A DNA stretch of 64,000 nt, taken from assembly GCA_964474825.1 (NCBI GenBank), contig CAYYWQ010000001.1:165609-229608 (forward strand), read 5' to 3'. This DNA is from an uncultured Candidatus Saccharibacteria bacterium (GTDB lineage Bacteria; Patescibacteriota; Doudnabacteria; UBA920). Made by a program: the position numbers and the translations under genes. Positions 10,894 to 52,380 of this stretch are shown in pieces. The notes beneath the pieces are model-generated. The model worked only from the letters and a program-made list of their open reading frames with translations, had not been told where the DNA came from and ran no database searches. How positions within the stretch are numbered: the first letter of the stretch is position 1; every line of letters starts with the position of its first letter.

Positions 10894-12213
10894 ATGCTCA
10901 CCATTGAAGGAAATATAGTAAACATAGACGGAATAAATCGTGGCCGAATAGAAATAGGCGACAATGGTTTAATAACTTCGGTTGGCAAAGAAACAGGGAA
11001 TGCAGATGTTGTTTTAAAAGAAGAATTAATTTTTCCGGGGTTTATAGACGTTCATGTCCACGCGCGCGAATGTGTTGACCATAGCCAGGACTATAAAGAA
11101 GATTTTGCCACTGTTGGGGAGGCAGCCATAAACGGTGGCGTAGTGGCAATTGCCGATATGCCCAACAACCCTGTGGCGCCGGTAGATGAAAAAAGTTATG
11201 AGGAAAAATATCAGCTTACGAAAAAATGTCCGGTAGATGTTTTGTTATATGCTGGTATTGGTCCTAAAACCAATCCGTTTTCTGTGTCATTCCGAGCGAG
11301 TGCATCCGAGTCGAGGAATCCCTTAAATTTTGTTCATACTGATGACAAGGGATCCCTCCGCTCACCCTCAGATGCATTCGGGTTCGGTCGGGATGACAAG
11401 CGTCCAGTTCCTTACAAAGCTTTTATGGGAAAATCGGTGGGGGATTTGTTCTTTGAATCTTTCCAGCAGCTAGAAGAGGTTTTGGAAAAATACAGCGGCC
11501 AAAGCGTTAGTTTTCACTGCGAAGACCCTAAAGTGTTGGCGGAAAACCAAAATCAATCTTCACATGAAAAGCAACGTCCGCCACAGGCCGAAGTTTCAGC
11601 TGTGGATTTTGCGCTAAGAATGATTGAGAAATATAATTTGCAAGGAAAAATTTGCCATTGTTCAACTATGGAAGGGGTACAAAAAGTTATTGCGGCAAAA
11701 AAGCGCGGCCTACCAGTAACAGTAGAAGTTACGCCGCATCATTTGTACTTTAATGCAGAAGCCAAACTTCAAATGAATCCTCCACTGCGTAAGCAAGATG
11801 ATTGCTTAGCTTTGATTGAGGCTTTGAAAAAAGGGGAAATAGATTATTTAGCCACAGACCACGCGCCGCATACTATAGAAGAAAGAAATATAGGAATTTC
11901 AGGACTGCCGCATTTAGATACATATGGCCCGTTTGTGACATGGCTTATGACAGAACATAATTTTACTGCCCAAGATATTGCCAGGGTTTGTTCCCAAAAT
12001 CCCGGACAATTTCTAAATAAATTTATAAATGTAAAGTATGGTAAAGTAGAGGAAGGTTACGCAGGCAGCTTAACAGTAATAGACATGAAAAAGCCGGTTA
12101 AAATAGAAACCGCGATGCTAAAAACAAAGTGCGGTTGGTCGCCGTTTGAAGGAATTACGTTTCCGGGTAGTGTCGTAAAAACAATTATTAAAGGCAAGGT
12201 TTATGAACGGTAA
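10894..12213 (+). CDS. pyrC: Dihydroorotase, carrying an in-frame ~112-nt palindromic repeat insertion
   Basis: FPGFIDVHVHARE metal-binding motif; TDHAPH; first gene of the pyrC-carA-carB-pyrB cluster. Confidence 0.8.
   Translation: MLTIEGNIVNIDGINRGRIEIGDNGLITSVGKETGNADVVLKEELIFPGFIDVHVHARECVDHSQDYKEDFATVGEAAINGGVVAIADMPNNPVAPVDEKSYEEKYQLTKKCPVDVLLYAGIGPKTNPFSVSFRASASESRNPLNFVHTDDKGSLRSPSDAFGFGRDDKRPVPYKAFMGKSVGDLFFESFQQLEEVLEKYSGQSVSFHCEDPKVLAENQNQSSHEKQRPPQAEVSAVDFALRMIEKYNLQGKICHCSTMEGVQKVIAAKKRGLPVTVEVTPHHLYFNAEAKLQMNPPLRKQDDCLALIEALKKGEIDYLATDHAPHTIEERNIGISGLPHLDTYGPFVTWLMTEHNFTAQDIARVCSQNPGQFLNKFINVKYGKVEEGYAGSLTVIDMKKPVKIETAMLKTKCGWSPFEGITFPGSVVKTIIKGKVYER
11286..11397. repeat. Palindromic repeat element, family B (RPE-like), inserted in-frame within pyrC
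   Basis: gtcattccgagcgagtgcatccgag...ctcagatgcattcgg...gggatgac. Imperfect long inverted repeat. Homologous copies at 16477-16526 and 20516-20634. Confidence 0.75.
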
Positions 12214-26000: not shown

Positions 26001-26642
26001 TCAAGGTTTCCCTTGAGGCTTTCGAAATCCCGCAAACCGCTTTGCGCGTTCTTTTTTTATGGGGTTGTAGTCGGCGTTGAGGATCTTGACCCAATTGGCT
26101 GGCAGCGTAGGGTCGTAGCCCGCGTCTTTTAGTTTGGCAACCAGTCCCTCTAAGGTGTGCTTGCGGGTACGTGCCAGCAACTTTTGCGCCTCTTGCGATT
26201 CATAGTAGGGCAGGCGCCGCAGGGTGCCGGTTGTTGTTTGCGGAAAAATTCTTTGCAAGATTTGTTTCCGCATAAGCAGGCTGAGTTGCCGCACGTCTTC
26301 GCCATTTAGCCAGAGTAGGTCAAACACAAAGTAAATAACGTGCGGGTTGCCGGTGGTTACGGCTTCAAAGTCCGGGTTGCCTTCGCTGTCCAGACAGGCC
26401 AGTTCGCCGTCGAACACAGCTTCTTCAAAACCCAAACCCACAAGCTCCTTGCGCACCTGCGCGAACCCGGCATGGGTTTTACCGCTTTTCGTTTGCAGTG
26501 TTACGCTCTTGCCAGAGATTTTTGCCAGGCAACGCCAGCCGTCTACTTTGGGTTCGTACACGTAGAGCAGGGGATTCTTAAGCACTTGCGTTATGCTGTA
26601 GCGGTCATCGCTCACAACAATAGCGGTTATTTTGGGCACCAT
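26001..26642 (-). CDS. Minimal ATP-dependent DNA ligase-like nucleotidyltransferase (213 aa, adenylation domain only)
   Basis: Motif I KVDGWR, motif III FDGEL, motif IV EGLVAK, motif V WVKIL; high-GC context. Confidence 0.65.
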   Translation of the reverse strand: MVPKITAIVVSDDRYSITQVLKNPLLYVYEPKVDGWRCLAKISGKSVTLQTKSGKTHAGFAQVRKELVGLGFEEAVFDGELACLDSEGNPDFEAVTTGNPHVIYFVFDLLWLNGEDVRQLSLLMRKQILQRIFPQTTTGTLRRLPYYESQEAQKLLARTRKHTLEGLVAKLKDAGYDPTLPANWVKILNADYNPIKKERAKRFAGFRKPQGKP

Positions 26643-27398: not shown

Positions 27399-27523
27399 AA
27401 GGAACTAGGCGCCTAAAAAGCCGCGCAAATCCCTTCAAAGAAAACCCTGTATTATACCCCCTAAAAAATATGCTTTAGTATATCAAAAAGCCCGGGAAAG
27501 TCCAGGCTTAGTTTTATAAAATA

Positions 27524-27892
27524 TTAGTTATTGTTACTCCACCAATTTGGCCTGCTTAAGTCTTTTGTTTTAATTCCTTTCGCTAGACAATAGGGAATAT
27601 AAGGCAAAACATCTGCGAGTAAATGTAAAATAATTAAAGGCGGAAATTTTGTCCAATTACCAAAGTCTTGGTGAATGCAAACAAGCTCGCCTTCATCTAC
27701 AGCATGAATGTGTTTAAAATAAGCACGGGAACGATAGCTGTTGGTTGGGTGGGAAAAATTATACTCTTTTTTAAATAAATTTTTTACAGCCTCAAAATCT
27801 GCCGGCTTAACCCAAATAAAATATCTGTCTAATGGCTTAATGTCCAGCATCTTCCTTTCCCAAAAATAATTCCAAAGTTCTGTTTCTTTCAT
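27524..27892 (-). CDS. Hypothetical protein downstream of the KAP NTPase gene
   Basis: ORF only. Confidence 0.4.
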   Translation of the reverse strand: MKETELWNYFWERKMLDIKPLDRYFIWVKPADFEAVKNLFKKEYNFSHPTNSYRSRAYFKHIHAVDEGELVCIHQDFGNWTKFPPLIILHLLADVLPYIPYCLAKGIKTKDLSRPNWWSNNN

Positions 27893-27974
27893 GTTCTAAA
27901 TTCTAATTGGAGTAAAAAACGGGCCATGTCCCTATTTGTTTTTCCTTGTTGATCATTCATGAAAGTTTATATGA

Positions 27975-30900
27975 TTATGGAAGAGATATGTTGCTATTTT
28001 CATCAAATTCTTTTTCCTGCTCTACGCCAAAGAACGCATATTTTATTTTGCCCTTCTTAGAGATTCCTTCATCTGGGTCTCCTCCAATTCTATTTGTCAG
28101 CTGAATTGTAAGCGTACCGTTTACAATAGATTTATTTAGCTGTTCTGTAATATCAATAATTTTTTCAGAATGGGTGCCATAAGTTGCTTTTACTATCTTA
28201 AACTTGTCTTTAGCCCCAAGATTTTTCAACAATGTTTTGCCTGTTAGTCGCTCACTCGACCCCTCAGGATTTTGATAAAGCTCTAAACCATATTGTTCAA
28301 TTTCACTAATAAATGAAGTCTTTTTTTCGAACAAAAGTTTATGTGCAAATAAAATATTAACCAAACTTTCCTTTTGTGGTAATGGTGTCTTTTTTAGTAT
28401 TTCAAATAGCTTTCTAGGTAAACCTTCTTTCCTGCTCTTGGGGATGTTTTGAATAACATTCCCACTTTGAAGGTAGCCTGAAATTTTGTTTTTCACCTCT
28501 TGGGATTCGCCATCATTATCAAGAATTGCTAGCCATACATCTAATAACTTTTCCTTGTGCTCATCACTCAATAGATTATATGAAGGAATGAGAAAACTGT
28601 GAGTTAAAAATCGCTGATCTAAATCTGTAAAACTAGCCGACCATTCTAAAAGCTTATCAAATATTCCATCTAAGAAACCATCATTTAGTTGTGATCGAAT
28701 TAACTCTATCTTTTGTAAAGCGAAGCGAATATTAACAAAATCTTTGGACTCGATTATAATTTGTTTTAAGCCCTCCAAATACAAGGTCTTCTTTTTGCTT
28801 GCATCAATACCGTTCAAGCCTTCTAACAGGAGAGTTTTTTGACCTTCGTCAACACTTGGTTGCAAGACTCTTTCAACTATAGATCTTTTTAAATCAGTTA
28901 CAAATTCTACTTTTTCTTCAGCAAATTTTAATAACAAACTCTTTATATCTTGGAATTCGTTACTTGAAGAAATTTGTTGTTCATAGACTTTTTTAAAATC
29001 ATCTTTGGCTGTTTCTGAAGCCTGCGAGAGTTTATTTATAAGGTTAACAATATCAAGCTTTAGCTTTTGTGGTATTACTGGATTGTTAATATATAAAATA
29101 TAATGGGGGGCTACTACCTCATAATAATCTTTTGTTATTTTTTCTTCCTTAATTATATTAATATAAAAATTAAGTACCGCTTCCTTTCCAGGGTTCCATT
29201 CTGGAATTTTGGGATTTGTAATAAATCCATTTAAGTTATTTAATAATTGGGCAATTTGCTTTTTGCTTAAAAATGGTATTATCTGAGAATTAACTTGCAA
29301 AGTTTTAGTACTCAACTCATCCAATGAACTAGGGTCGTTAGTGATAGTATTTAGACCATAAATAAGTTGGTCTATAAAACCTTCGCTAATAAATGATTTG
29401 GTGACTGTTTTGTTGGCTAGCAATAGTAAAGAAGTGTCTAAAACAGAAACCTTAAGATTATTATCTTGATAATATCGATAAATTAAATCTGAGATTTTTG
29501 TTTTGATTTGGGAAGTAAGTATGTCAACATTTTTGGAATAGGTCTCAATGATCTTGTTAAGTACCACTTTAGGATCATCACTCTCCAAAACTTTTGAATG
29601 CTCATCAAGGATTAGATCGCGCTGAGTAAATTGAGTTTTTGTATTACCGTTCAAGACTTTAAAAAGACTTTCGGATTTATAAGAACCTGCTTTAGCAAGA
29701 TGTGGAGTTTTGGCCGCTGATTGTGTAAATGCGTCTGCCAGTTTAGCTTTATATCCATCTGGAATTAAATCAAATATGGATAGAACCATATTTAAAATAT
29801 TGAAAACAGAAGCAAATTTATTTTGTCTTTGCTCTTGATTCAAGAGCGAACTAATTTGCTGAACTATATTTTGTTTCTCCTGCTCATTCGACTTTTTAAT
29901 TGTACTTAAGACAGACTCTTCTCTACCACTAATCAAAGAAATTTTAAGTTCCGAGCTTACGCCTAATACCCCGGCATAACCCTCTCTTTTTAAATTTATG
30001 AATTGTTCAAGCTTTAAAGATTGATATGGCCTTGATGCTTGTAGAAAATCAGAAAGGTTCTGGTCTTCAAGTTGCTTTTTTATCTCCTTTATTTTAGGTC
30101 CGTCTTCTGTACCGTTTCTCAAGTAAGTATCTGCGACTTGAAGGGCATCGGAATCATCAAGAAGAACTTTAAAGAAATTTGGCCATTCTTCTTGTAAGAT
30201 AATTAATTTGGATAAAAATGTGAGGTTGTTAGTTACTAGGCCTGTATCAATGTTTCCGAGCTCCTCTTGAGCTAAGGCTAAAAGATAGGTCGTACTTAAA
30301 TTATTGTAAAACTGCTTTATCTTTCTAGGAGTATGAGAAAAAGCATTTAAAACTAAATTGGCAATATTATCTTTTTCCTCATCGTCCTTAAATGGAATTG
30401 CAATCTGACATGAAATCTTGCTAATATACTTTTCTAAATCTCCTTTGAGAAAAGGTGATAAGCGTACTGTAACTTGAAAGAACTTCTTTAAAAAATCTCT
30501 GCTCTGAAGATCTTTTTCATTAGCACCAAGGTCGTCAGTTATAAGACCTTTTTTTAAATGATTCAATAGTGCCCCTTCGTCTACAGGAACAATATAAAGG
30601 CATCCATCGATATTTAAAAAAGTTTTTATTGTGCCTAATAATTCAATTGCTATTTCATTTGTGCACCTATCAAGATTATCAATTACGATAACGATTTTTT
30701 TAAACTTTTTCTTTGCAGTACTAACATATCTTTTAAAGACTTCCTCAAATTGCTCATCAGAAAATAAAGGACTATTTTCTTCGACCCAGTCTTTGACTTT
30801 AATCAAATTTTTAAGACCACTAACACCTCTAGATAAAATTGTTGCTAAGGAACTTGGCACTAATACTAAAACAATTTTATAAAACCATTCAATATTATAG

Positions 30901-31406
30901 TTAAATTGCCACAAGAACGAGGCTGCTAAAATAATCAAATACCAAAAGATAAACTGTAAAACCAAATTTTTTACTTCTTCTTTATCCCAGTATAAGTTGT
31001 AAGACTGTTTTTTTGTTGTTACCGTCGTATAAAAGATTAGTTTTAAATTATCATCAATATCTAAATCTGCTTTCATTTTGGCAAGAAACTGACGATAAAA
31101 AGCATTCTTTTGGTATTTCCAAGCATCAAAATACACGAAGCCAATATCTGATGCAGATTCTTGTAGTCTCTTTCTAAGAAATTTATTAACCAAAGTTGTT
31201 TTTCCAACTCCCCATTTACCCAAAACCCCAACTACAAAAGGCGTCTTAGCCTCCTTTGTAATAGCTTCAAGAGTATCAACATAGTGCTCATACCCAAATT
31301 CATCGAGATCCGAAGGTTCATCAATTAATAGAAGAGATTGGCCTTTTGCAAGAAGGTCTTTAAATTCTTTATCTTTCTTGTTATTCCACCAGCTTGTGAT
31401 GTCCAT
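27975..31406 (-). CDS. KAP-family P-loop NTPase (1143 aa) with TM helices inserted in the NTPase domain
   Basis: Walker A GVLGKWGVGKTT; TM pair LVLQFIFWYLIILAASFLW / IVLVLVPSSLATIL; KAP signature IVIVIDNLDRC. Confidence 0.8.
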   Translation of the reverse strand: MDITSWWNNKKDKEFKDLLAKGQSLLLIDEPSDLDEFGYEHYVDTLEAITKEAKTPFVVGVLGKWGVGKTTLVNKFLRKRLQESASDIGFVYFDAWKYQKNAFYRQFLAKMKADLDIDDNLKLIFYTTVTTKKQSYNLYWDKEEVKNLVLQFIFWYLIILAASFLWQFNYNIEWFYKIVLVLVPSSLATILSRGVSGLKNLIKVKDWVEENSPLFSDEQFEEVFKRYVSTAKKKFKKIVIVIDNLDRCTNEIAIELLGTIKTFLNIDGCLYIVPVDEGALLNHLKKGLITDDLGANEKDLQSRDFLKKFFQVTVRLSPFLKGDLEKYISKISCQIAIPFKDDEEKDNIANLVLNAFSHTPRKIKQFYNNLSTTYLLALAQEELGNIDTGLVTNNLTFLSKLIILQEEWPNFFKVLLDDSDALQVADTYLRNGTEDGPKIKEIKKQLEDQNLSDFLQASRPYQSLKLEQFINLKREGYAGVLGVSSELKISLISGREESVLSTIKKSNEQEKQNIVQQISSLLNQEQRQNKFASVFNILNMVLSIFDLIPDGYKAKLADAFTQSAAKTPHLAKAGSYKSESLFKVLNGNTKTQFTQRDLILDEHSKVLESDDPKVVLNKIIETYSKNVDILTSQIKTKISDLIYRYYQDNNLKVSVLDTSLLLLANKTVTKSFISEGFIDQLIYGLNTITNDPSSLDELSTKTLQVNSQIIPFLSKKQIAQLLNNLNGFITNPKIPEWNPGKEAVLNFYINIIKEEKITKDYYEVVAPHYILYINNPVIPQKLKLDIVNLINKLSQASETAKDDFKKVYEQQISSSNEFQDIKSLLLKFAEEKVEFVTDLKRSIVERVLQPSVDEGQKTLLLEGLNGIDASKKKTLYLEGLKQIIIESKDFVNIRFALQKIELIRSQLNDGFLDGIFDKLLEWSASFTDLDQRFLTHSFLIPSYNLLSDEHKEKLLDVWLAILDNDGESQEVKNKISGYLQSGNVIQNIPKSRKEGLPRKLFEILKKTPLPQKESLVNILFAHKLLFEKKTSFISEIEQYGLELYQNPEGSSERLTGKTLLKNLGAKDKFKIVKATYGTHSEKIIDITEQLNKSIVNGTLTIQLTNRIGGDPDEGISKKGKIKYAFFGVEQEKEFDENSNISLP

Positions 31407-31427
31407 AATTATAATTTATACAAAAGT

Positions 31428-31460
31428 TAGTCCATAGGTATTTTACTCCCAATTAAGCCA
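31428..31460 (-). promoter_or_regulatory. Conserved island promoter, copy 1 (TTGTAA-17-GGAGTAAAAT), upstream of the KAP NTPase gene
   Basis: Same motif at 34916-34947 and 38111-38143. Confidence 0.55.
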
Positions 31461-31866
31461 TTTTACAAAGACCCTTGATATTAAATAATCAAAGCCTATT
31501 TAAGAGTCTGACCACTAACCTGCGAAGATAATATCTCGCAACGGCTGACAGAAAATTTTATCAATTTTAGACTAATCTTGCGGTTTTATTTGTTTGGCTG
31601 ACAATGCAAGCTTTGCATATGCCACATCATCGTGAAAATCGTATTTAGCATGTTTATTTTTTGCAAACAAACGAGTGAGGATATCCATCCTTAGCAATTC
31701 ATTAGCTTCTCTTTTTGTCATACCTGAAACGTGAGCAGGCAAATATTCTAAAGGATAGTGTATGCCGCAGGCTTTGGAAAACAAAAAGGGGACATGACCC
31801 ATTTAAAAACGCCGCATGGCGTTTTTTTGTGTGCACCTAGGTTGCGCTTATGGGAGGAGTAGGGGA

Positions 31867-32151
31867 CTAGTTTATAAATTCTTTTAGCATTTGTTTTACG
31901 GTGGTTTTTCCTTTTGTTGTTTTAAAATAAGCTTCTCTTCTTAGGGCGTCTTGTTTGTTGGGAAAAGCTTCGTAAAAAATTAGTTCCAACGGCCGGCGGT
32001 TTTTGGTCGAAACATTTTTACCCATATTATGGTCATAAACTCTTTGTTTTAAGTCATCGGAATAGCCAATATAAAACAGCCCGTCTTTGAGGCTGCGGAG
32101 GATGTAGACATAATGAAATTTTATAGACATAAGTTTATGATTAATCTTCAT
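31867..32151 (-). CDS. GIY-YIG nuclease-domain protein (small, UPF0213/YhbQ-like)
   Basis: YVYILRSLKDGLFYIGYSDDLKQRVYDHN...RRPLELIFYE. Confidence 0.75.
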   Translation of the reverse strand: MKINHKLMSIKFHYVYILRSLKDGLFYIGYSDDLKQRVYDHNMGKNVSTKNRRPLELIFYEAFPNKQDALRREAYFKTTKGKTTVKQMLKEFIN

Positions 32152-32570: not shown

Positions 32571-33992
32571 ATGACAGAAAAGCAAACAAAAGAAATAGAA
32601 AGCAATATACTGAAACTAGATAATGTGTTAAAGAAAAAATATACTTCCAAGCTGGAAGTTAATTTTGATTTGAAGAGAACCCTAGTTAGTTTTCAGGCTA
32701 ATAAAATAGAATCTGGGTACCGTTGGTATAAATTTAAAGAAGGGTTCTCGTCATCTCTAGTTAAGTATTGTCTTAAAAAAGCAGGTTTAAAGAAAGGTAA
32801 AATACTTGATCCCTTTGCAGGAAGTGGTACTTCATTGTTTGTTGGTGTTGAGGAAGGACTGGATGCCACAGGAATCGAGTTATTGCCCATAGGTCGTGAA
32901 ATTATAAAAGCCAGAGAATTCGCATTACAGACAGATAAAGAAAAACTAAGGTCCATAATAGCAGATTGGATAAAGAATAAGCCTTGGAAAGACCCCAAGA
33001 TAAAAGCCAAGCACTTAAAGTATTTAAATATTACTAAGGATGCTTTTCCCGATGAGACCGAGGTTGAGCTAGGTAGATATCTAACATATTGTGAAAAATT
33101 AAAGGACAAAGACCTGTCTCAGTTTTTTAGATTTGCTGCATTATGTATTTTAGAAGAAATTAGTTATACACGAAAAGATGGTCAATATTTAAGATGGGAT
33201 CACAGGTCACGTAGAACTAATGGCAGTAAAATTTTCAACAAAGGATTAATAAAAACCTTTGACCAGGCTATTAGTTCAAAGTTAGACCAAATTTGTATAG
33301 ATTTAAATAAAGAAGAAATTGATTTATTTTCAAAGGTTGGAAATAAAGAAATCGGAAGCATAGAATTGCTTGAAGGATCTTGTTTAGATGTTCTCCCTAA
33401 GCTTAAAGCTAAGAGCTATGACTTTGTTATGACTTCTCCACCTTATTGCAATAGATACGATTACACTCGTACCTATGCTTTAGAATTAGCCTTACTTGAG
33501 GTAGAAGAACAGGAATTGAAAGATTTAAGACAGACAATGCTTTCCTGTACAGTTGAAAATAGAGAAAAGAGTGATTTGAAAAATAAATTTTCTAGAGAGG
33601 TTTTTGAAGAAGCTTCAAAGGCATTTGATTCTCAAAAGCTCTTAAAATCTATACTAGATTATCTAGAGATATTAAAAAAAGAAAAAAAGCTCAATAACAC
33701 TGGGATCGTCAGAATGATCCGTAACTATTTTTATGAAACAAGCTTAGTAATATTTGAATGCTCCAGAATTCTGAAATCTGGTGGATACTTTTTCATGGTC
33801 AATGATAATGTTAGGTATGCCAGTATAAACATTCCTGTTGATCTTATTTCTTCAGAATTTGCCAAAGCAGCCGGATTCAATGTAGAAAAAATATGGGTCT
33901 TACCAATAGGAAAAGGCAATAGTAGCCAACAAATGGGACTACATGGAAGAGAGGAATTGAGAAAATGTGTCTACGTCTGGCGCAAAATCTAA
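32571..33992 (+). CDS. DNA methyltransferase (N4-cytosine or N6-adenine; alpha-class motif order I then IV)
   Basis: SAM motif I ILDPFAGSGTS; catalytic motif IV TSPPY. Confidence 0.8.
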   Translation: MTEKQTKEIESNILKLDNVLKKKYTSKLEVNFDLKRTLVSFQANKIESGYRWYKFKEGFSSSLVKYCLKKAGLKKGKILDPFAGSGTSLFVGVEEGLDATGIELLPIGREIIKAREFALQTDKEKLRSIIADWIKNKPWKDPKIKAKHLKYLNITKDAFPDETEVELGRYLTYCEKLKDKDLSQFFRFAALCILEEISYTRKDGQYLRWDHRSRRTNGSKIFNKGLIKTFDQAISSKLDQICIDLNKEEIDLFSKVGNKEIGSIELLEGSCLDVLPKLKAKSYDFVMTSPPYCNRYDYTRTYALELALLEVEEQELKDLRQTMLSCTVENREKSDLKNKFSREVFEEASKAFDSQKLLKSILDYLEILKKEKKLNNTGIVRMIRNYFYETSLVIFECSRILKSGGYFFMVNDNVRYASINIPVDLISSEFAKAAGFNVEKIWVLPIGKGNSSQQMGLHGREELRKCVYVWRKI

Positions 33993-34888
33993 AGAGAAAT
34001 TAGCCAGGATATTAAGCCCTCAAACTGAGTATCAGAATTTAGATTAGCTGCACAAGCTAGTCTTTTTTCTTGTAGCTGGTTGTAAATCTCTACTGCCATA
34101 GCATTCTCAATTGCAGCACCTACGAAAAATAATTTAGGCTTATTTTTATTATCTTCAAAGACTTTTCTAATTCTGTCTAAAGCACTATTGGCCGTTTTCC
34201 AATGTTCATCTGCTCCAGCAGGGTCAATTCCTCCCTTTAATTCACCACACGCAAGATAACGATTCTTATCATTAAAAATGTCTTTAGTGATTTTAGTTAA
34301 GCCTGTTGTGTCGAGTAGAATTGCATCAATATTTTTACCAATTAGAGCAGGCTTGAAATCAAAAACCAAAAATCTTTTTGGCCAAGTAAGGCTTTGAACT
34401 TTCCCAGAATCACTTGCTTTAGCTTCGAGTTCAATCTTCTTTGCTTTCAATTTTTTTACTATAGCACCAGCTAATTTGTTACCTGCTAATGCCCCAGTCT
34501 TATTCCTTGAAATACCTCCTAATGTATCGCCCTTGGTAAGTAAGTATCTATACACAAGCTCTTGAGTAAAATTGTCTCCGGCAGTAATTTGATATTTATT
34601 TAAAGCCTCTTTTAAGGCTGCCTTTAAGTCTTCCTCAGAAAGGTGATTAATGGCTTTATCAGAAAACCCAACCGCAGCAATTAACTCCAGTCTATGATGC
34701 GAAAAAAACTCAGGTTTGAAAATATCCTCAATAGTTTTTACTTTTGATAATCCTTCTTTAAATGTCTCTGCTTTTACTAAGTAAGGATGAGCACTGCTTT
34801 CTTTAAAAAGTGCTTGCGTTAAAAACCCCTTCCTTACATTGTACGGGGAAGTAACCAAATCCTCTGGCTTATCAATTGAGTCAGTCAT
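33989..34888 (-). CDS. Putative Type II restriction endonuclease, convergent and overlapping stop codons with the methyltransferase
   Basis: Tail-to-tail 4-bp overlap with the MTase, typical R-M arrangement; no recognisable family. Confidence 0.45.
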   Translation of the reverse strand: MTDSIDKPEDLVTSPYNVRKGFLTQALFKESSAHPYLVKAETFKEGLSKVKTIEDIFKPEFFSHHRLELIAAVGFSDKAINHLSEEDLKAALKEALNKYQITAGDNFTQELVYRYLLTKGDTLGGISRNKTGALAGNKLAGAIVKKLKAKKIELEAKASDSGKVQSLTWPKRFLVFDFKPALIGKNIDAILLDTTGLTKITKDIFNDKNRYLACGELKGGIDPAGADEHWKTANSALDRIRKVFEDNKNKPKLFFVGAAIENAMAVEIYNQLQEKRLACAANLNSDTQFEGLISWLISL

Positions 34889-35021: not shown

Positions 35022-36899
35022 CTATTTCCATTTATCAATTAGGGTCATTGTTTCGTTCCTTGGTGCATATTTCTTTTCTATTTCCCCAATATCAACTACA
35101 ACAGGGACTTGTGCCAGTAAGCCTGCAAGTATACAAGTTCCCGTGGGTAAAATTGGTATGTAGTCAAAAGACACCTTATCCAAAAAAGAAATAGTCTTTT
35201 CGACAGCCTTTATGTCTTCTTGGTTAATTAGTCTGTGTAGGAAGTAATTATGAAGTTGAGAAATTATTGTTTGAGAAATATCTGAAGGTCTCTGGCTAGC
35301 AATAGTTAGGAATACCCCAAATTTTCTCCCTTCTTTTATTATTTCTTCAAAAGTTTCTAATCGATAATCTTTCCATTGTTCACTTTCTCTTTCTGAATCG
35401 TCGGATAAGATATTATGAGCCTCGTCGATAATAATGTTTAGGAAAGTGTTATCGTGTTTTTTCTTTTTTTCATTATATAAGCTCTTGCAAAGAAGCAATG
35501 GAAGTATTTTTCTAATATGGATATCTTCAACGTCTTTAAATGATACAATGGTTATATTTGGTTTTATATTGTTTGAATCTTGTGTTTGAACATCTTTAAC
35601 TTCAATAACCTTTTCTAATTCAGGGTATCTGCTATCCATTCTTTTAATTAAAGGAGATAAGTGCTCACGGTTTGCATGACCTTTAATAATATCGTCATAA
35701 TATTTTATAACAACCTTTAATCTAATAAGATTTATACTTGAATGGTTAAATTCTAGTTCGTCAATAATTCCTTTTAAAGGTTGAAGAATGTCCGTATTAA
35801 TACCTTCTTGACCATATTGATCAGTTGCCCCAATGTTCATATAAGAGCCTGTGGTTCCATTGAAGCCTAATTTTTCACTAAGAATATTTTTTGCATCTTC
35901 AAGCTTTTCGAAATTATTTACGCTAGTATATAAATCAGAAAATAATTCTATAAAAATTTTTGATCCCAAATTTTTATCTTTTTTATCAATCGTTTCTTTT
36001 ACCATCGAATACAATTTCGTTCTTAAGTTAGCATTAAAATTATCTCCTTCAAAGATTCTTTTCAAAGCACGGCTTGTCATAACGCTTCTCAAAAAGGGAG
36101 TTTGTGTTTTTTCAGTTGCCTCCAAATATATAGCCCAAAATATGGGATCGTTTAAAGTCTCTTCCGATACAGGAAATTTTTTACTTTCTTGACCTAACCT
36201 CGTTGAAAGTTTATAAATGTTTTTATATTTTTCTTCTACTATCCCATTTGGGTGATCGTATTCCCCATTAAAATCAACTAAGAAAAATTGAGCCTTTTTC
36301 TTAAAGCCATTGTTGTCTTTATATTTTTCAAAAAGTTCGTGGTAAATTTTTGCTAAGGTATAGGATTTACCACTGCCAGTATTTCCGAATATACCGATAT
36401 GACTTGCAAAAAGACTATTGATACCCACTCCTATACGCTGTCCTTTTTCAAGCGACAGCACACCAATATATATAGGTTCGTCAGTTCCTTTTATGAAATT
36501 ATGGACTTGGTCAAATTCATCTTTTTCCAACAAATAGCATTCATTATCAATCAAGGGGAGCTCTTTTATACCTCTTTCAAAATTTTGCCCCTCAAAAAAT
36601 CCTAACAAGCTAATGCTTAGAGTCCTGCTAATTTTATCTCCTTCATTTTTATAACTCTTTTCTGCAAACTGTTTATCTTCAGTGACAAACTCACCGTCAA
36701 CTTTTCCAATAATTTTTATAAAACCTTTTGCTATTTTAACGTACCCTCCGACTGATATGTTTTTTAAAAGCTCCCCTCTATATAAAAGATTTGAGGAGTT
36801 TTTACTTTTATCAACCTTTACTTTTATCACCCTGCCTTCAACAGAGATGACCTTTCCTATTTTAAAAATAGAATCTTTTAATAGAGAGTCGTCGTTCAT
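35022..36899 (-). CDS. HerA-like (DUF87) ATPase, partner of the SIR2 protein
   Basis: Walker A GNTGSGKS; Walker B IIIDEAHNIL; 625 aa. Confidence 0.75.
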   Translation of the reverse strand: MNDDSLLKDSIFKIGKVISVEGRVIKVKVDKSKNSSNLLYRGELLKNISVGGYVKIAKGFIKIIGKVDGEFVTEDKQFAEKSYKNEGDKISRTLSISLLGFFEGQNFERGIKELPLIDNECYLLEKDEFDQVHNFIKGTDEPIYIGVLSLEKGQRIGVGINSLFASHIGIFGNTGSGKSYTLAKIYHELFEKYKDNNGFKKKAQFFLVDFNGEYDHPNGIVEEKYKNIYKLSTRLGQESKKFPVSEETLNDPIFWAIYLEATEKTQTPFLRSVMTSRALKRIFEGDNFNANLRTKLYSMVKETIDKKDKNLGSKIFIELFSDLYTSVNNFEKLEDAKNILSEKLGFNGTTGSYMNIGATDQYGQEGINTDILQPLKGIIDELEFNHSSINLIRLKVVIKYYDDIIKGHANREHLSPLIKRMDSRYPELEKVIEVKDVQTQDSNNIKPNITIVSFKDVEDIHIRKILPLLLCKSLYNEKKKKHDNTFLNIIIDEAHNILSDDSERESEQWKDYRLETFEEIIKEGRKFGVFLTIASQRPSDISQTIISQLHNYFLHRLINQEDIKAVEKTISFLDKVSFDYIPILPTGTCILAGLLAQVPVVVDIGEIEKKYAPRNETMTLIDKWK

Positions 36900-36911
36900 G
36901 AGGATTTTACA

Positions 36912-38072
36912 TTAGTCCGAAATCTTTTTAACAATTTTGCTAAATATTTCTTTGTCAATATTTTGTAAATTCAATTCAAACATATCTTCTTTCTTCCCTT
37001 GAAGCCTAGCTATTAGAGAGCCGGCTTTTTGGGGAGGAGTTAAAATATGAATATTATTGTTTTTGATTTTATCAAAATCAATAATTTTTCTAAGCGTCTT
37101 TTCTGTGTTTGTAGAATGAGCGAGAATAAAAATTCTCAATGTTGGGTTAGAATCCGCAGCCCTTAACGTAAGCGCTCTTATATGCTGGTCTCTAAAGGAA
37201 AAACCCATAACAAATAAAACGGTGTTTTCTTTTTCTAACTCGTTTGAGTAAGACCTTAGCAATCCATAATAGGTTTCATTAAGAACTGTATCCTTTAATT
37301 TTGCTTCTGTAGGGTTAACAATGGCAAAATCTTTGTAGCTTGCCATAAATTGTTTAATTTCGTCAATACATTTTAGGCCATTAGATTTTTTTATTAAATC
37401 TTGTTCCTTATCTTTTTTGTCGATAGTAATAATTTTATCTTTTGGAATTTTGATCTCATTTAATTTTTTAATAAGTTCTAAATTCGATGAAAATTTTATT
37501 TCCTTATTTTCGATTTGCCAAGTTAAAGATCCGTGCATTTTTAACACATTAAATACTGGTATCTCCGAGGTGTTGTCGTAATAAAGACTTTTTTTAAAAT
37601 AAGATTTTTTAAAATTACCTAGATTAAAAGCAGGTTTAAATCTGCCACAGAAACCATCATTAAATTCAAGGCCACTTTCCTCTAAACTTTTTTCTAAAAA
37701 TAAATCAATATTGGTTGTAAACAAATTTGCCTGTTTGCAAAAAATATTTTTTCTTTTTAATAACAAAGTGTTTATAGATGTTAAAAAGTTTCTATAATTT
37801 TGTAAGACTTCATTTGGTTCATTTTCATTTTGTAGAATCCCGACATTTTTTGAAATTACTCCGTCAAAGTAGTGTTTGTAAAGCGATGACGTGATAATCT
37901 CTTTTTGTTCGGCTTCAACTATTTGGTTTTTATTCTCTTCAAAAATCCCAAGTAAATTTTCTATATTTTCTAGGCAATCTAAATACGGTCTCGACATCCC
38001 AGCCCCAATTAAAAAGTTTATGTTTGCACTTTCTATTACACTTTGTATTTCGTCTAGGTTATGTGTATCCAT
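36912..38072 (-). CDS. SIR2-like (SIR2_2 family) NADase-domain protein of a SIR2-HerA defence pair
   Basis: NFLIGAGMSRP, FTTNIDLFLE (TTNYD-like) and KMHGSL motifs. Confidence 0.7.
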   Translation of the reverse strand: MDTHNLDEIQSVIESANINFLIGAGMSRPYLDCLENIENLLGIFEENKNQIVEAEQKEIITSSLYKHYFDGVISKNVGILQNENEPNEVLQNYRNFLTSINTLLLKRKNIFCKQANLFTTNIDLFLEKSLEESGLEFNDGFCGRFKPAFNLGNFKKSYFKKSLYYDNTSEIPVFNVLKMHGSLTWQIENKEIKFSSNLELIKKLNEIKIPKDKIITIDKKDKEQDLIKKSNGLKCIDEIKQFMASYKDFAIVNPTEAKLKDTVLNETYYGLLRSYSNELEKENTVLFVMGFSFRDQHIRALTLRAADSNPTLRIFILAHSTNTEKTLRKIIDFDKIKNNNIHILTPPQKAGSLIARLQGKKEDMFELNLQNIDKEIFSKIVKKISD

Positions 38073-38110: not shown

Positions 38111-38143
38111 GTATTTTACTCCTATCTAAGCGGTTTTACAAAG
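38111..38143 (-). promoter_or_regulatory. Conserved island promoter, copy 3 (TTGTAA-17-GGAGTAAAAT), upstream of SIR2-HerA
   Basis: Motif match. Confidence 0.55.
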
Positions 38144-38487
38144 GGGGTGGATTCCGATATAATTTAAATAACAACTGAATAAAGTAGCCTAAACCACTAG
38201 TAATATTGGCATGGCGAAAAAAACCACAGAAATGTAAAGACGGTCACCTGTCTTGTCTTAACCATTTCTGTGGTCACTATCCGAAAGGGTAGCGGGGCAA
38301 GCGGGTGGCCTTTTTTGATTCCCGTAGAAAGGTTAAAAATATGTGCTTTAGTCCGTTCGATAATACTTGGCATTTTGTATACTTGATTGTTTGGACTGTT
38401 ATTTGGACAATCATTGGGTACGGACTTCGTAAGTCAGAAAAAGGTGGCAGCTTTTAGCTGTCCTTTTTAATTGCTAAGTTATTTTAT

Positions 38488-41688: not shown

Positions 41689-43158
41689 ATGGCCAACAGC
41701 AATATAATAAAGCCTAATAATAAATTTCTTGCCTATGTCAGGGTTAGCAGTAAAGACCAGTCCCGTGGCACCAGCCTTGATGAGCAAAAAGCCCGTATCA
41801 TGCAATATGCCCATGACAAGGGGTTTGAAATTATAAAATTTTACGGTGAGGTTGAATCGGCTTCAAAAGCAGGCAGAGAGATTTTTCAAGATATGACAGA
41901 GCAGTTAAAAAAAGAAAAATTGGCTGGCATTATATTTCACAAAGTAGACAGGTCATCTCGTAACCCAAAAGATTCAGCCGAACTCTACCAGCTTATGATG
42001 GAAGGGTATCAGTTGCACTTTGCAGACGGTGGATACTCAACCAATGACCCTACAGGCCGAACTATGATTTATATTATGTGGGGCATAGCCAGTAGCTACA
42101 GTGAAAATTTGGCAGCAGAAATTAATAAGGGAATTTTAGGAAGATTAAAACAAGGGCGTTATCCTGGACCTGTTCCTTTGGGTTACAAAAAAGCAGAGGA
42201 CTGTAAAGCCGTACTGGATCCACAGAAAGCCCCACTGGTCAAAAGAATGTTTCAGGAATATGCCACAGGCAAGTATTCCATAGAAACTATGAAAAAAATA
42301 ACAAAAGAGTTTGGCCTGACAAATAGAAATGGTTGCTACTTGGGTATTAATCCGATTCACGGAATGTTAAGGGAAACTTTTTACTATGGCCTTATTACTC
42401 ACAAGCGAGGTACGTTTCAGGGAGAGCACCCACCTTTAATTACCAAAGCTTTATTTGATAAGGTTCAGTTTATGCTACACGACAGGGGCTTTAAAATTGA
42501 GCACCACCACAAATATATATTTCAAGGGCTGATGAAGTGTTATGTATGTGGCAAAATACTTAAAGCTATGACTGCAAAAAGGAATCATCGTTACTACCTG
42601 TGCAGGAATAGGTCTTGTGGAATTAAAACTATTTCGGAAAAAGTAGTTGAGGATCAATTTGTTGAGAAGCTAAAAGAATTGGAATTCAGCCCCGAAGAAG
42701 CCGAAGGGTTTAAAAAAGCCGTCCTAAGTTTTAGAAGGACAGCAGAACGGTCAAAGGACGAACAAATTAAAGCCTTGGACCTGGAGCTATCAGCGATTGA
42801 TTCAAGGCTAAGTGAATTATTGCAGAAGTATATTGATAAAAGGATTGACGATGAAACCTACAGCAAGACCAGAGAAGCCTTGTTAAACAGGCAAATAGAG
42901 CACAAAGAAGCCCGTACAGCACTGGAAACAACAGATGAAAAGGCCTTTGACGAAATAACCGAGTTGGTCAAACTGCTAATAAACCCAAGCATAGCCTATA
43001 GAAAAAGCACTGATCCAATAAATCAGCGCCGTCTCGTAATGTCTATGGTGGCAAACCTTGAGCTAAACGGTAAAGTACTTATAGTTAAGTGGAAAAAACA
43101 CTTTGATTTGATCGCTAGACGACCAAAACTAAATTATGGTGGAGATGCCGGGAGTTAA
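41689..43158 (+). mobile_element. Large serine recombinase (phage-type integrase) gene
   Basis: Catalytic region YVRVSSKDQ...SLDEQ...IIFHKVDRSSRN; recombinase domain; Zn-ribbon CYVCGK...CRNRSC; C-terminal coiled coil. Confidence 0.85.
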
Positions 43159-43715
43159 ACCCGGGTCCAAAACTTCTCAACTTTTCCATTGTTCACAAGA
43201 TTAGTCAGCTCATAAACTTTAACGACAGGAGCTGACCAGATATCGCCAAAGGTGATTTACTTAGCTTAGGCTAACCTGCGCAAATCAACCAGGTTAACTG
43301 CAGCCCCAATAAACTTGCTGGACCGTGGTCGGGGCGGACCGCGGGGCAAGGCATTAACTTAAAATTAAGCTAATACAGGTTGTAACTGGGCGTTTTGAAA
43401 CGCGGCTACTACCTTGTTCCAAGCTGTTGTAGCATTTGGATTTGATTACGGCATTTTTACGAGTGAGTAATCATTCTCGTCTTGCATATAGAAAAATGTT
43501 AAAGTCCTGTCAAAATCCGTCATCCCCAGTATGACAACCTTGCAATTGTTCGCTGTCTTACAGACTAAACCATTACAAAGTATTTTCCTAAGGGTGCCCA
43601 CAAATAGAGCGTTTTGCATAACCTACAGCTCACAAAGGAGGTTTGCAAGGTTGCTCTACTGGGCATCCCCACAGGAAGACTATTTTACCACAAAAATGCG
43701 TTGTGGACAAGTGCT

Positions 43716-51948: not shown

Positions 51949-52380
51949 TTATTTAAATTCCCTAATTTCTTTATTGGCTTCCCTTTTTTTCACATACTCC
52001 CTTTTGTCAGTTTTCTTTCTGGCTTTACCTAACCCAATCTTTATTTTTAAAAGCCCGCGGTGACCCAGGAAAATTTCTAAAGGAATTACCACCAAGCCTT
52101 TTTCTTTGCCTAGGAGCTGGTTTATTTCGTGTTTATTTAAAAGTAATTTGCGGGTGTGGGTAGGGTCGTATTTTTCATTAGCCGCGTATTTGTAAGGCCC
52201 AATATGGCAGTTAATTAAATTGGCTCCGGAAGAGGATACAGTAACATAGCTGCCTGTTAAGGAAACATTCCCAGATTTAACAGACTTAACTTCAGCTCCT
52301 GAAAGCACCAAGCCCGCCACTAAAGTTTCTTTAATGTCGTAATCAAAATTTGCCCTGCGGTTGTCTGCGAGAGTTTTCAT
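51949..52380 (-). CDS. smpB: SsrA-binding protein
   Basis: ANRRANFDYDIKETLVAGLVLSGAEVKSVK... Confidence 0.9.
   Translation of the reverse strand: MKTLADNRRANFDYDIKETLVAGLVLSGAEVKSVKSGNVSLTGSYVTVSSSGANLINCHIGPYKYAANEKYDPTHTRKLLLNKHEINQLLGKEKGLVVIPLEIFLGHRGLLKIKIGLGKARKKTDKREYVKKREANKEIREFK

Follow-up and report, generated by a model that had tools for sequence, protein, structure and literature searches.

KAP-family P-loop nucleoside triphosphatases (NTPases) are also found in eukaryotes, where they have signalling roles, and PifA of the F plasmid is known for T7 exclusion. The closest described systems come from a recent study (PMC13552941, PLoS Biol 2026), in which all four KAP NTPases put to the test, whose C-terminal regions are unrelated to one another, gave E. 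faecalis protection against phages. Protection by one of them, EF_KAP, required Walker B and the C-terminal region and was equally strong at multiplicities of infection (MOI) of 1 and 10, which the authors read as non-abortive. The same paper describes PifA as a membrane-associated, phage-restricting KAP NTPase, and its authors note that phage restriction may not be the primary function of PifA. Here we analysed a stretch of 64,000 nucleotides (nt) from an uncultured bacterium of the Doudnabacteria lineage (the window; contig CAYYWQ010000001.1, positions 165,609 to 229,608), which encodes a KAP NTPase of 1143 amino acids (aa) and, immediately downstream, a 122-aa protein. A preliminary description had suggested that the two genes form an abortive-infection-type module. 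Our comparisons favour another reading, which we regard as probable though well short of certain: a stand-alone KAP defence cassette whose downstream neighbour is unrelated to it.

The KAP gene and the elements of its NTPase half are located as follows.

27975..31406, minus strand: KAP-family P-loop NTPase gene, 1143 aa, ATG start (open reading frame (ORF) list, Pfam, PADLOC)
30267..31286, minus strand: KAP NTPase domain, aa 41-380 (Pfam, motif positions)
31194-31220, minus strand: Walker A GKWGVGKTT, aa 63-71 (motif position)
30804..30983, minus strand: two-helix transmembrane (TM) hairpin, aa 142-201, between Walker A and Walker B (hydropathy, AlphaFold2 (AF2), family conservation)
30663-30680, minus strand: Walker B DNLDRC, aa 243-248 (motif position)

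Both ORFs were found exactly where the preliminary description had put them, on the minus strand with 82 nt between them, and its assignment of the longer product to the KAP NTPases was borne out. The Pfam profile KAP_NTPase (PF07693) matched aa 42-376 over profile positions 4-292 of 293, with a score of 120.5 bits (E=1.1e-34; cutoff 20). GKWGVGKTT begins at aa 63; DNLDRC begins at aa 243, in the context VIDNLDRC; and both Walker motifs are intact. Residues G60, G63, G66, G68, K69, D243, N244, D246 and R247 are invariant in the family alignment. The TM helices that had been placed inside the NTPase domain were also recovered: hydropathy analysis gave hydrophobic 19-mers at aa 145-168 and 174-196, both between Walker A and Walker B, and the AF2 model folds these segments into a helical hairpin (H142-167/H173-201), the position of which is kept in 18 of 18 aligned family members. 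A sequence search of the PDB with the KAP protein returned generic P-loop matches only, and no solved relative was detected.

With a KAP domain carrying TM helices, a long and domain-poor C-terminus, and a stand-alone gene that has no conserved neighbour, the window KAP has the anatomy of the class described in PMC13552941. EF_KAP and the three metagenomic examples of that study are likewise single genes with one or more TM helices in the KAP domain and intact Walker motifs, and the class also has in common with the window KAP a long C-terminal region in which neither known domains nor structural matches are recognised, as well as linkage to serine recombinases and mobile elements. The differences, as far as the proteins can be compared by description, lie in the C-terminal region, which has 322 aa in EF_KAP as opposed to a ~580-aa HEAT-like solenoid plus a PF11875-like domain here. 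Furthermore, a small serine recombinase accompanies the class in that study, whereas the window has a large serine recombinase targeting transfer-messenger RNA (tmRNA), and the host here belongs to the candidate phyla radiation (CPR).

The best PADLOC matches of the KAP protein were all to defence or candidate-defence KAP families, namely PDC-S20 (E=1.2e-20), QatA (2e-17) and PifA (9.4e-16). The PDC-S20 match (PDLC04959) spanned profile positions 14-458 of 464 (96%) and ~45% of the protein. The PDC-S20 profiles have ~450-464 positions and cover the NTPase and linker only, whereas the window KAP is ~600 residues longer; the homolog P0009 behaved in the same way against them. Judging from the PADLOC-DB naming, we take PDC-S20 to be a candidate system that is not validated, and a literature search for it returned no paper. 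An identification with PifA was rejected, since the similarity did not extend over the full length but was confined to the N-terminal P-loop segment (best-matching stretch aa 32-122 against positions 14-106 of a 720-position profile) and there is no relationship between the C-terminal parts. The KAP-type ATPase core is shared with QatA of the QatABCD system (NCBIfam E=1.4e-20). This identification was rejected as well, the score being 73.5 bits where the equivalog cutoff is 600, with no QatB, QatC or QatD (QueC-like, TatD-like) genes in the island.

The C-terminal half comprises two further parts.

28221..29960, minus strand: HEAT/ARM-like alpha-solenoid, aa 483-1062, ~30 helices (AF2 predicted local distance difference test (pLDDT) score ~90, Foldseek)
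27978..28214, minus strand: PF11875 (DnaJ-like_C11_C/DUF3395)-type beta domain, aa 1065-1143 (profile and HMMER searches)

The AF2 model was built on an 18-sequence alignment and had a mean pLDDT of 80. It shows a P-loop core (aa 41-380) into which a beta-hairpin and the two TM helices (129-211) are inserted, a helical linker (aa 381-480) and the solenoid. The C-terminal ~700 aa had been described as helical and free of known domains, which holds for aa 483-1062, all-alpha and without a Pfam match, but not for aa ~1065-1143, which are beta-rich and of the PF11875 type. In Foldseek searches the solenoid resembled the condensin HEAT subunit, SF3B1, CAND1, PP2A-A and importin-beta, and the whole KAP protein matched RADAR RdrA, NLRP9 and Cdc6/Orc1, which are P-loop switches with helical arms; the E values were 1e-6 to 1e-4 overall, with ~1e-5 to 1e-4 for RdrA, NLRP9 and Cdc6/Orc1, and the TM-scores only 0.13-0.3. 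In STAND-type ATPases (Avs/NLR-like, RADAR RdrA), as in the KAP protein, a P-loop switch leads into a long arm of alpha-helical repeats. However, the TM-scores are low, the KAP family is distinct with its TM hairpin inside the NTPase domain, and no RdrB-type deaminase partner is present here.

The two parts of the C-terminal half differ in their distribution. When 1.84 billion representatives were scanned by HMMER with aa 441-1143 as query, the solenoid was found only in its own family (P0009 and P0013, with a small number of weaker matches), and in the same scan the last ~78 aa matched at least 270 proteins. These relatives belong to PF11875 (DnaJ-like_C11_C, DUF3395), often as tandem arrays. 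The isolated KAP terminal segment scored 22.5 bits against PF11875, under the cutoff of 27.1, and the relatives that score above it include P0147 (256 bits) and P0054 (29.5 bits). The nearest ones, with 45-55% identity, are ~160 aa long and have two TM helices at the N-terminus; the terminal LP is kept in them as well. A word-indexed homology search with the 81-aa terminal domain returned nothing. AF2 modelled the domain poorly because most alignment rows lack it. Since the domain is absent from the KAP homologs at 41-43% identity, and no separately encoded copy was found near other KAP genes, it is a recent accretion in the lineage of the window and its closest ortholog (locus L012). As to the small proteins, P0040 (two TM helices plus a PF11875-like domain, 52% identical to the KAP terminal domain) is encoded in the region L186 3078-5590, two genes downstream of an OLD-family ATPase-TOPRIM gene, with HTH_3/Peptidase_M78 and PBECR3 genes also nearby; this setting looks like that of a defence locus or a mobile genetic element. 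A second such protein, P0044, adjoins Band_7 and NUDIX genes instead.

Sequence divergence is unevenly distributed along the KAP protein. Compared with the 41-43% homologs, the NTPase core retains 63-70% identity and the TM hairpin 22-37%. Identity in the solenoid, the fastest-diverging part, amounts to 22-32% at aa 481-900 and to 37-44% at aa 901-1062. Between the window KAP and its L012 ortholog (P0024, 91% aa identity), the overall ratio of nonsynonymous to synonymous substitution rates (dN/dS) is 0.08. Every region is under purifying selection, with dN/dS values of 0.02-0.22, and the solenoid shows 0.08-0.13 between close orthologs.

The downstream gene and its 3' flank are given here.

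27524..27892, minus strand: 122-aa gene, ATG start, an apparent orphan accessory gene (ORF list, family and locus searches)
27488..27509, minus strand: terminator-like hairpin plus T-run, 3' of the 122-aa gene (sequence inspection)

As the preliminary description stated, the 122-aa gene lies directly downstream of the KAP gene on the same strand, and several features could be taken to indicate a two-gene module of the abortive-infection type. The 82-nt gap holds no clear terminator, so read-through co-transcription is possible in this genome; a terminator follows the 122-aa gene; and both genes are low in GC content. A stub ORF in the gap ends with a TGA that shares bases with the start codon of the 122-aa gene (ATGA), which makes co-expression in this genome plausible. 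However, the proposed pairing did not survive the co-occurrence check: the 122-aa gene is not conserved beside KAP homologs, a finding that the preliminary description itself had named as grounds for rejecting it. A profile hidden Markov model of the 122-aa family, which recovered every positive control at ~1e-69, found no member among the 5,348 ORFs of 98 KAP-family loci (776 kb in total; best E=0.56), so that none of these other KAP loci has a partner-like ORF. Conversely, no KAP gene is visible in the four contexts of 122-aa homologs. The contigs concerned are short (1-2 kb), with the upstream gene readable in L007/L008 and L009 and not in L010 or a JGI contig; where it is readable, the gene directly upstream is clearly not KAP, and the homologs adjoin DUF218-like, EamA, OmdA, ABC1 and SmpB genes. 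The 91%-identical KAP ortholog of L012 has another gene downstream and lacks the 122-aa gene, and its DNA homology with the window stops at 27935, short of that gene. DNA homology between the 122-aa loci is confined to the ORF, and the junction in the window bears the scar of another gene. As a conserved unit, the two-gene module is refuted already by these comparisons, and we give it hardly any credence. The 122-aa gene is very probably an unrelated neighbour and not a partner of KAP.

Other KAP loci did not offer a substitute partner, as no downstream gene of any kind recurs across them. The closest full-length relatives, at 41-43% identity, have a different gene downstream each time (L001-L006): a TadA-like deaminase in L001, a convergent recombinase in L002/L003, an 817-aa protein of no known family in L004/L005, and a 305-aa DHH-like protein in L006. 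The HEPN protein of L012, the deaminase, the DHH-like, the 817-aa and the other downstream proteins were each rejected as a recurrent partner of the KAP clade, being confined to their own loci. In L001, the gene at 11124-11588 encodes a 154-aa protein of the cytidine/dCMP deaminase family (TadA-like size), starts 10 nt after the KAP homolog P0007 and is followed by a gene for a DUF5680 protein. The deaminase and DUF5680 genes are probably host DNA at the island edge; alternatively, the KAP homolog and the deaminase may form a RADAR-like pairing of ATPase and deaminase.

The contexts of these KAP homologs are mobile elements at tRNA or tmRNA genes with serine recombinases. In L002 the order is tRNA-Gly, KAP and a convergent large serine recombinase. 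In L001 the ORF on the recombinase side ends (...LVTLRGIEPRLTA, then stop) antisense to the 3' end of a tRNA-Glu gene (L001 4217-4257). The recombinase is a large serine recombinase in the window and in L002/L003, and in L001 a 219-aa Resolvase ORF is possibly the N-terminal part of a split large recombinase.

The 122-aa protein belongs to a small family, with five clusters among 5.8 billion proteins, which has so far been seen only on Doudnabacteria-like contigs; the family alignment found no relative in 185k representative genomes. Its gene is under purifying selection (dN/dS 0.16-0.18), and the start at M1 is backed by a conserved MKExELWNYFW. No match was obtained in Pfam, PADLOC, NCBIfam or PHROGs, and Foldseek searches of the PDB and BFVD with an AF2 model (pLDDT 68) gave nothing significant. 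H48, H61, H63, D66, E67, C72, H74, D76, H90 and D94 are invariant in the family, which also has a hydrophobic C-terminal helix. This set of His, Asp, Glu and Cys residues, together with the helix, suggests a small membrane-associated metal-binding protein.

The genomic locations of the family vary, which points to an accessory gene. In L007/L008 the order is a gene for a 139-aa DUF218-like protein, the 122-aa homolog, SmpB and PLD. The SmpB and PLD there are 80% and 59% identical to the products of window genes at ~52 kb, and these contigs evidently derive from a relative of the host that carries the 122-aa gene at a different place. The order is EamA, 122-aa homolog and OmdA in L009, and 122-aa homolog followed by a gene for 263 aa in L010; an ABC1 gene is also among the neighbours. 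The gene is absent from 80 of 80 SmpB-anchored CPR loci. Its GC content is 34.7% in the window and 36-38% in relatives elsewhere, and it sits at transitions from lower to higher GC in the window, in L007/L008 and in L009.

Comparison with L012 delimited the unit to which the KAP gene belongs.

27935..31568, minus strand: KAP cassette, made up of the KAP gene with its promoter-like element and 40 nt of 3' sequence (blastn against L012, edge alignments)
27889..27960, minus strand: 23-codon stub ORF MNDQQGKTNRDMARFLLQLEFRT (then stop), whose first 5 codons correspond to the start of a TM-HEPN/DUF4145 gene (edge alignments)
31439..31469, minus strand: promoter-like element TTTGTAAAATGGCTTAATTGGGAGTAAAATA, with TTGTAA-N17-TAAAAT at 31468..31440, 33 nt upstream of the KAP ATG
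38112-38142, minus strand: second copy of the promoter-like element, directly upstream of the SIR2-HerA operon

When L012 was compared with the window by blastn, a single 3.65-kb block with 88% nt identity was obtained, in which L012 2034-5680 corresponds to window 31568-27935. Its edges lie 162 nt upstream of the KAP ATG and 40 nt past the KAP stop. In L012 a gene for a 270-aa multi-TM HEPN/DUF4145 protein begins 14 nt after the KAP stop. The window retains ATGAATGATCAACAA, the first five codons (~15 nt) of that gene, and the homology breaks there. Because the window keeps the start of an L012-type TM-HEPN gene and the rest is gone, the juxtaposition of KAP and the 122-aa gene is derived, the junction being a deletion or recombination scar.

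The scar invites a different reading of the KAP gene itself, as the orphaned sensor or switch of a former KAP plus TM-HEPN system that has lost its effector and is now inactive or decaying. The position of the HEPN gene in L012, 14 nt behind KAP, and the five codons left in the window would both fit such a history. However, an HEPN homolog occurs in no other KAP locus and so is not a family-wide partner, and the neighbours of the 41-43% homologs are other and unrelated genes. The 1143-aa ORF is unbroken and keeps every catalytic residue, and dN/dS is 0.08 across all domains. We consider the orphaned-half explanation quite unlikely and retain the stand-alone cassette.

The 31-nt promoter-like element has two matches in the window, against an expectation of none, and no match in 181 other loci; it is also kept upstream of the KAP ortholog in L012 (L012 2143-2171). 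Its spacer is conserved as well (GCTTA..T.GGAG), which suggests a shared regulator site or a hotspot of cassette exchange and not only a promoter. In addition, an intergenic stretch of the window (38157-38323) recurs in L012 at 93% identity, and two backbone ORFs have homologs there. On the strength of these shared parts, the L012 element and the window island are related mosaics that exchange cargo.

The KAP cassette lies in an island together with the following features.

31572..31802, minus strand: 76-aa ORF, between the restriction-modification (R-M) system and the KAP cassette, as is the GIY-YIG gene
31867..32151, minus strand: stand-alone GIY-YIG protein, 94 aa (Pfam 2.9e-19)
32571..33992, plus strand: methyltransferase (MTase) of a BsoBI-type R-M system, 473 aa (PADLOC 1e-144)
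33989..34888, minus strand: BsoBI restriction endonuclease (REase), 299 aa (PADLOC 6e-77; Pfam Endonuc-BsobI 8e-80)
35022..36899, minus strand: HerA, 625 aa (PADLOC 8e-170)
36912..38072, minus strand: SIR2, 386 aa (PADLOC 5e-52)
41689..43158, plus strand: large serine recombinase with Resolvase, Recombinase and Zn_ribbon_recom domains (Pfam; PHROG integrase 5e-85)
43137..43527, minus strand: tmRNA (ssrA) gene, the integration site of the island (ARAGORN)

The island is a low-GC block of ~15.6 kb, from about 27.4-27.9 kb to 43.1 kb, with a GC content of 31-36% compared with ~43% outside; the GC content at third codon positions (GC3) is 26-33% in the island and 40-61% in flanking genes. The predicted defence-island setting was confirmed by Pfam and PADLOC, which identified a SIR2-HerA pair and a BsoBI-type R-M system adjoining KAP. 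The backbone includes a DnaD-like initiator fragment, and no virion genes were found with PHROGs; it is an integrative defence island and not a prophage. The SIR2-HerA pair (35022-38072) is complete, and another occurs in the Patescibacteria locus L073 (HerA 45% identity, SIR2 34%). The MTase and REase genes are convergent and their ends overlap by 4 nt. Neither the 94-aa GIY-YIG protein nor the 76-aa ORF had a PADLOC match.

The serine recombinase converges on the tmRNA gene, and its last 22 nt (43137-43158) are antisense to the tmRNA 3' end. The ORF ends in ...GGDAGS, with the stop codon within the T-loop TTAA of the tmRNA. The tRNA or tmRNA 3' end overlapped by the recombinase C-terminus is presumably the core of the attachment (att) site. 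Comparison of the tmRNA-proximal end with the far end revealed no att-like inverted or direct repeats above shuffled controls, and no island-free close relative that would give attB was found. In L014 and L029, inspection of the sequence downstream of the tmRNA showed a terminator hairpin only and no likeness to the far end in the window. Two other Doudnabacteria loci (L019 13747-15618 and L021 13700-15603) contain a distant large serine recombinase (27% identity) that converges on the identical tmRNA 3' end, and ssrA is on this basis a recurrent integration target, or hotspot, in the Doudnabacteria lineage.

The host, a CPR bacterium (Candidatus Doudnabacteria), has a very small genome, the contig on which the KAP gene is recorded being 1.21 Mb long. 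The window SmpB (51949..52380) is 75-83% identical to SmpB of metagenome-assembled genomes of Candidatus Doudnabacteria and Patescibacteria. Two observations concern features outside the defence cargo. ARAGORN gave the tag of the window tmRNA as AFQNAQLQPVLA, and near-identical tmRNAs of relatives are called with a longer tag, ANAWNKVVAAFQNAQLQPVLA; the window tmRNA sequence encodes ...AWNKVVAAFQNAQLQPVLA followed by a stop, and the true tag is probably the longer one. Just outside the island, a 213-aa ORF at 26001-26642 (minus strand) has a precomputed Pfam DNA_ligase_A_M match; an ATP-dependent ligase would rarely be so short, and no ORF in the neighbourhood has a higher GC content (52.8%).

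Several points weigh against a stand-alone defence cassette. PADLOC recognised no defence genes among the neighbours of the 41-43% KAP homologs. The TM-HEPN stub indicates that the immediate ancestor possibly worked with a second gene, and the low Foldseek TM-scores make the STAND analogy architectural only. Neither the ligand, the oligomeric state nor the effector activity can be read from the KAP sequence. With no att-like repeats to mark the far boundary of the island, the 122-aa gene may be either island-borne or host DNA. The first of these points would also be expected if KAP had no anti-phage role at all and served instead in island maintenance, in the exclusion of competing elements, or in membrane signalling in episymbiosis. 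Such a role could be likened to the signalling functions of the eukaryotic KAP NTPases, and close homologs do lie in mobile elements without recognisable defence neighbours. Phage restriction, moreover, may not be the primary function even of PifA (PMC13552941). However, four of four tested KAP proteins with C-terminal regions of unknown function were phage-protective in the same study, and the window KAP adjoins two bona fide defence systems and has a promoter-like element in common with the SIR2-HerA operon. We regard a non-defence role as unlikely. Provided that the stand-alone cassette reading is right, an anti-phage function of KAP is somewhat more likely than not.

Under the stand-alone cassette reading, the locus could have arisen and could work as follows. 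A single KAP gene with its own promoter-like element would have been carried as cargo of the ~15.6-kb island, inserted at the tmRNA gene by the large serine recombinase, and recombination or deletion would then have removed the TM-HEPN gene and brought the 122-aa gene beside KAP. The two-helix hairpin in the P-loop domain would tether the protein to the membrane. The fast-diverging HEAT-like solenoid, possibly aided by the PF11875-like domain, may bind a ligand derived from the phage or from infection, and binding may be coupled to the NTPase cycle in a STAND-like manner, leading to a conformational change or to oligomerisation. The output would most likely be at the membrane, since no enzymatic effector domain was recognised in the KAP protein, and might consist in perturbing the membrane or in blocking a membrane-associated step of infection. 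Even granting the stand-alone cassette, we hold this combination of sensor arm and membrane output as tentative and somewhat doubtful.

A bolder proposal, which on present evidence we think rather unlikely, is that the KAP clade represents a membrane-embedded NLR/STAND-like immune receptor specific to mobile islands of CPR/Patescibacteria. If that were true, the hypervariable solenoid would directly recognise a protein derived from a phage or from the host bacterium. NTP-driven oligomerisation of the TM hairpins would itself be the effector, for example by forming a pore or by keeping DNA from entering, and a separate effector domain would not be needed. The promoter-bearing cassette would be swapped between serine-recombinase islands that target tRNA or tmRNA genes.

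For the biology of this group, the candidate defence unit to be considered is a single KAP gene with its promoter (27935-31568) and not a two-gene operon, and an abortive-infection mechanism should not be assumed. The KAP gene moves between related islands as a cassette of promoter plus gene. The combination of a HEAT-like solenoid with a PF11875-like domain is a C-terminal architecture that is not described in the KAP-fusion class of PMC13552941, and the confidently modelled repeat array, a putative "sensor arm" attached to a P-loop switch that is inserted in the membrane, allows specific hypotheses to be framed for that class. Patescibacteria are stated in the literature to have yielded very few defence systems so far (PMC12366544), and here a CPR genome of ~1.2 Mb bears a defence island of three or four systems at ssrA.

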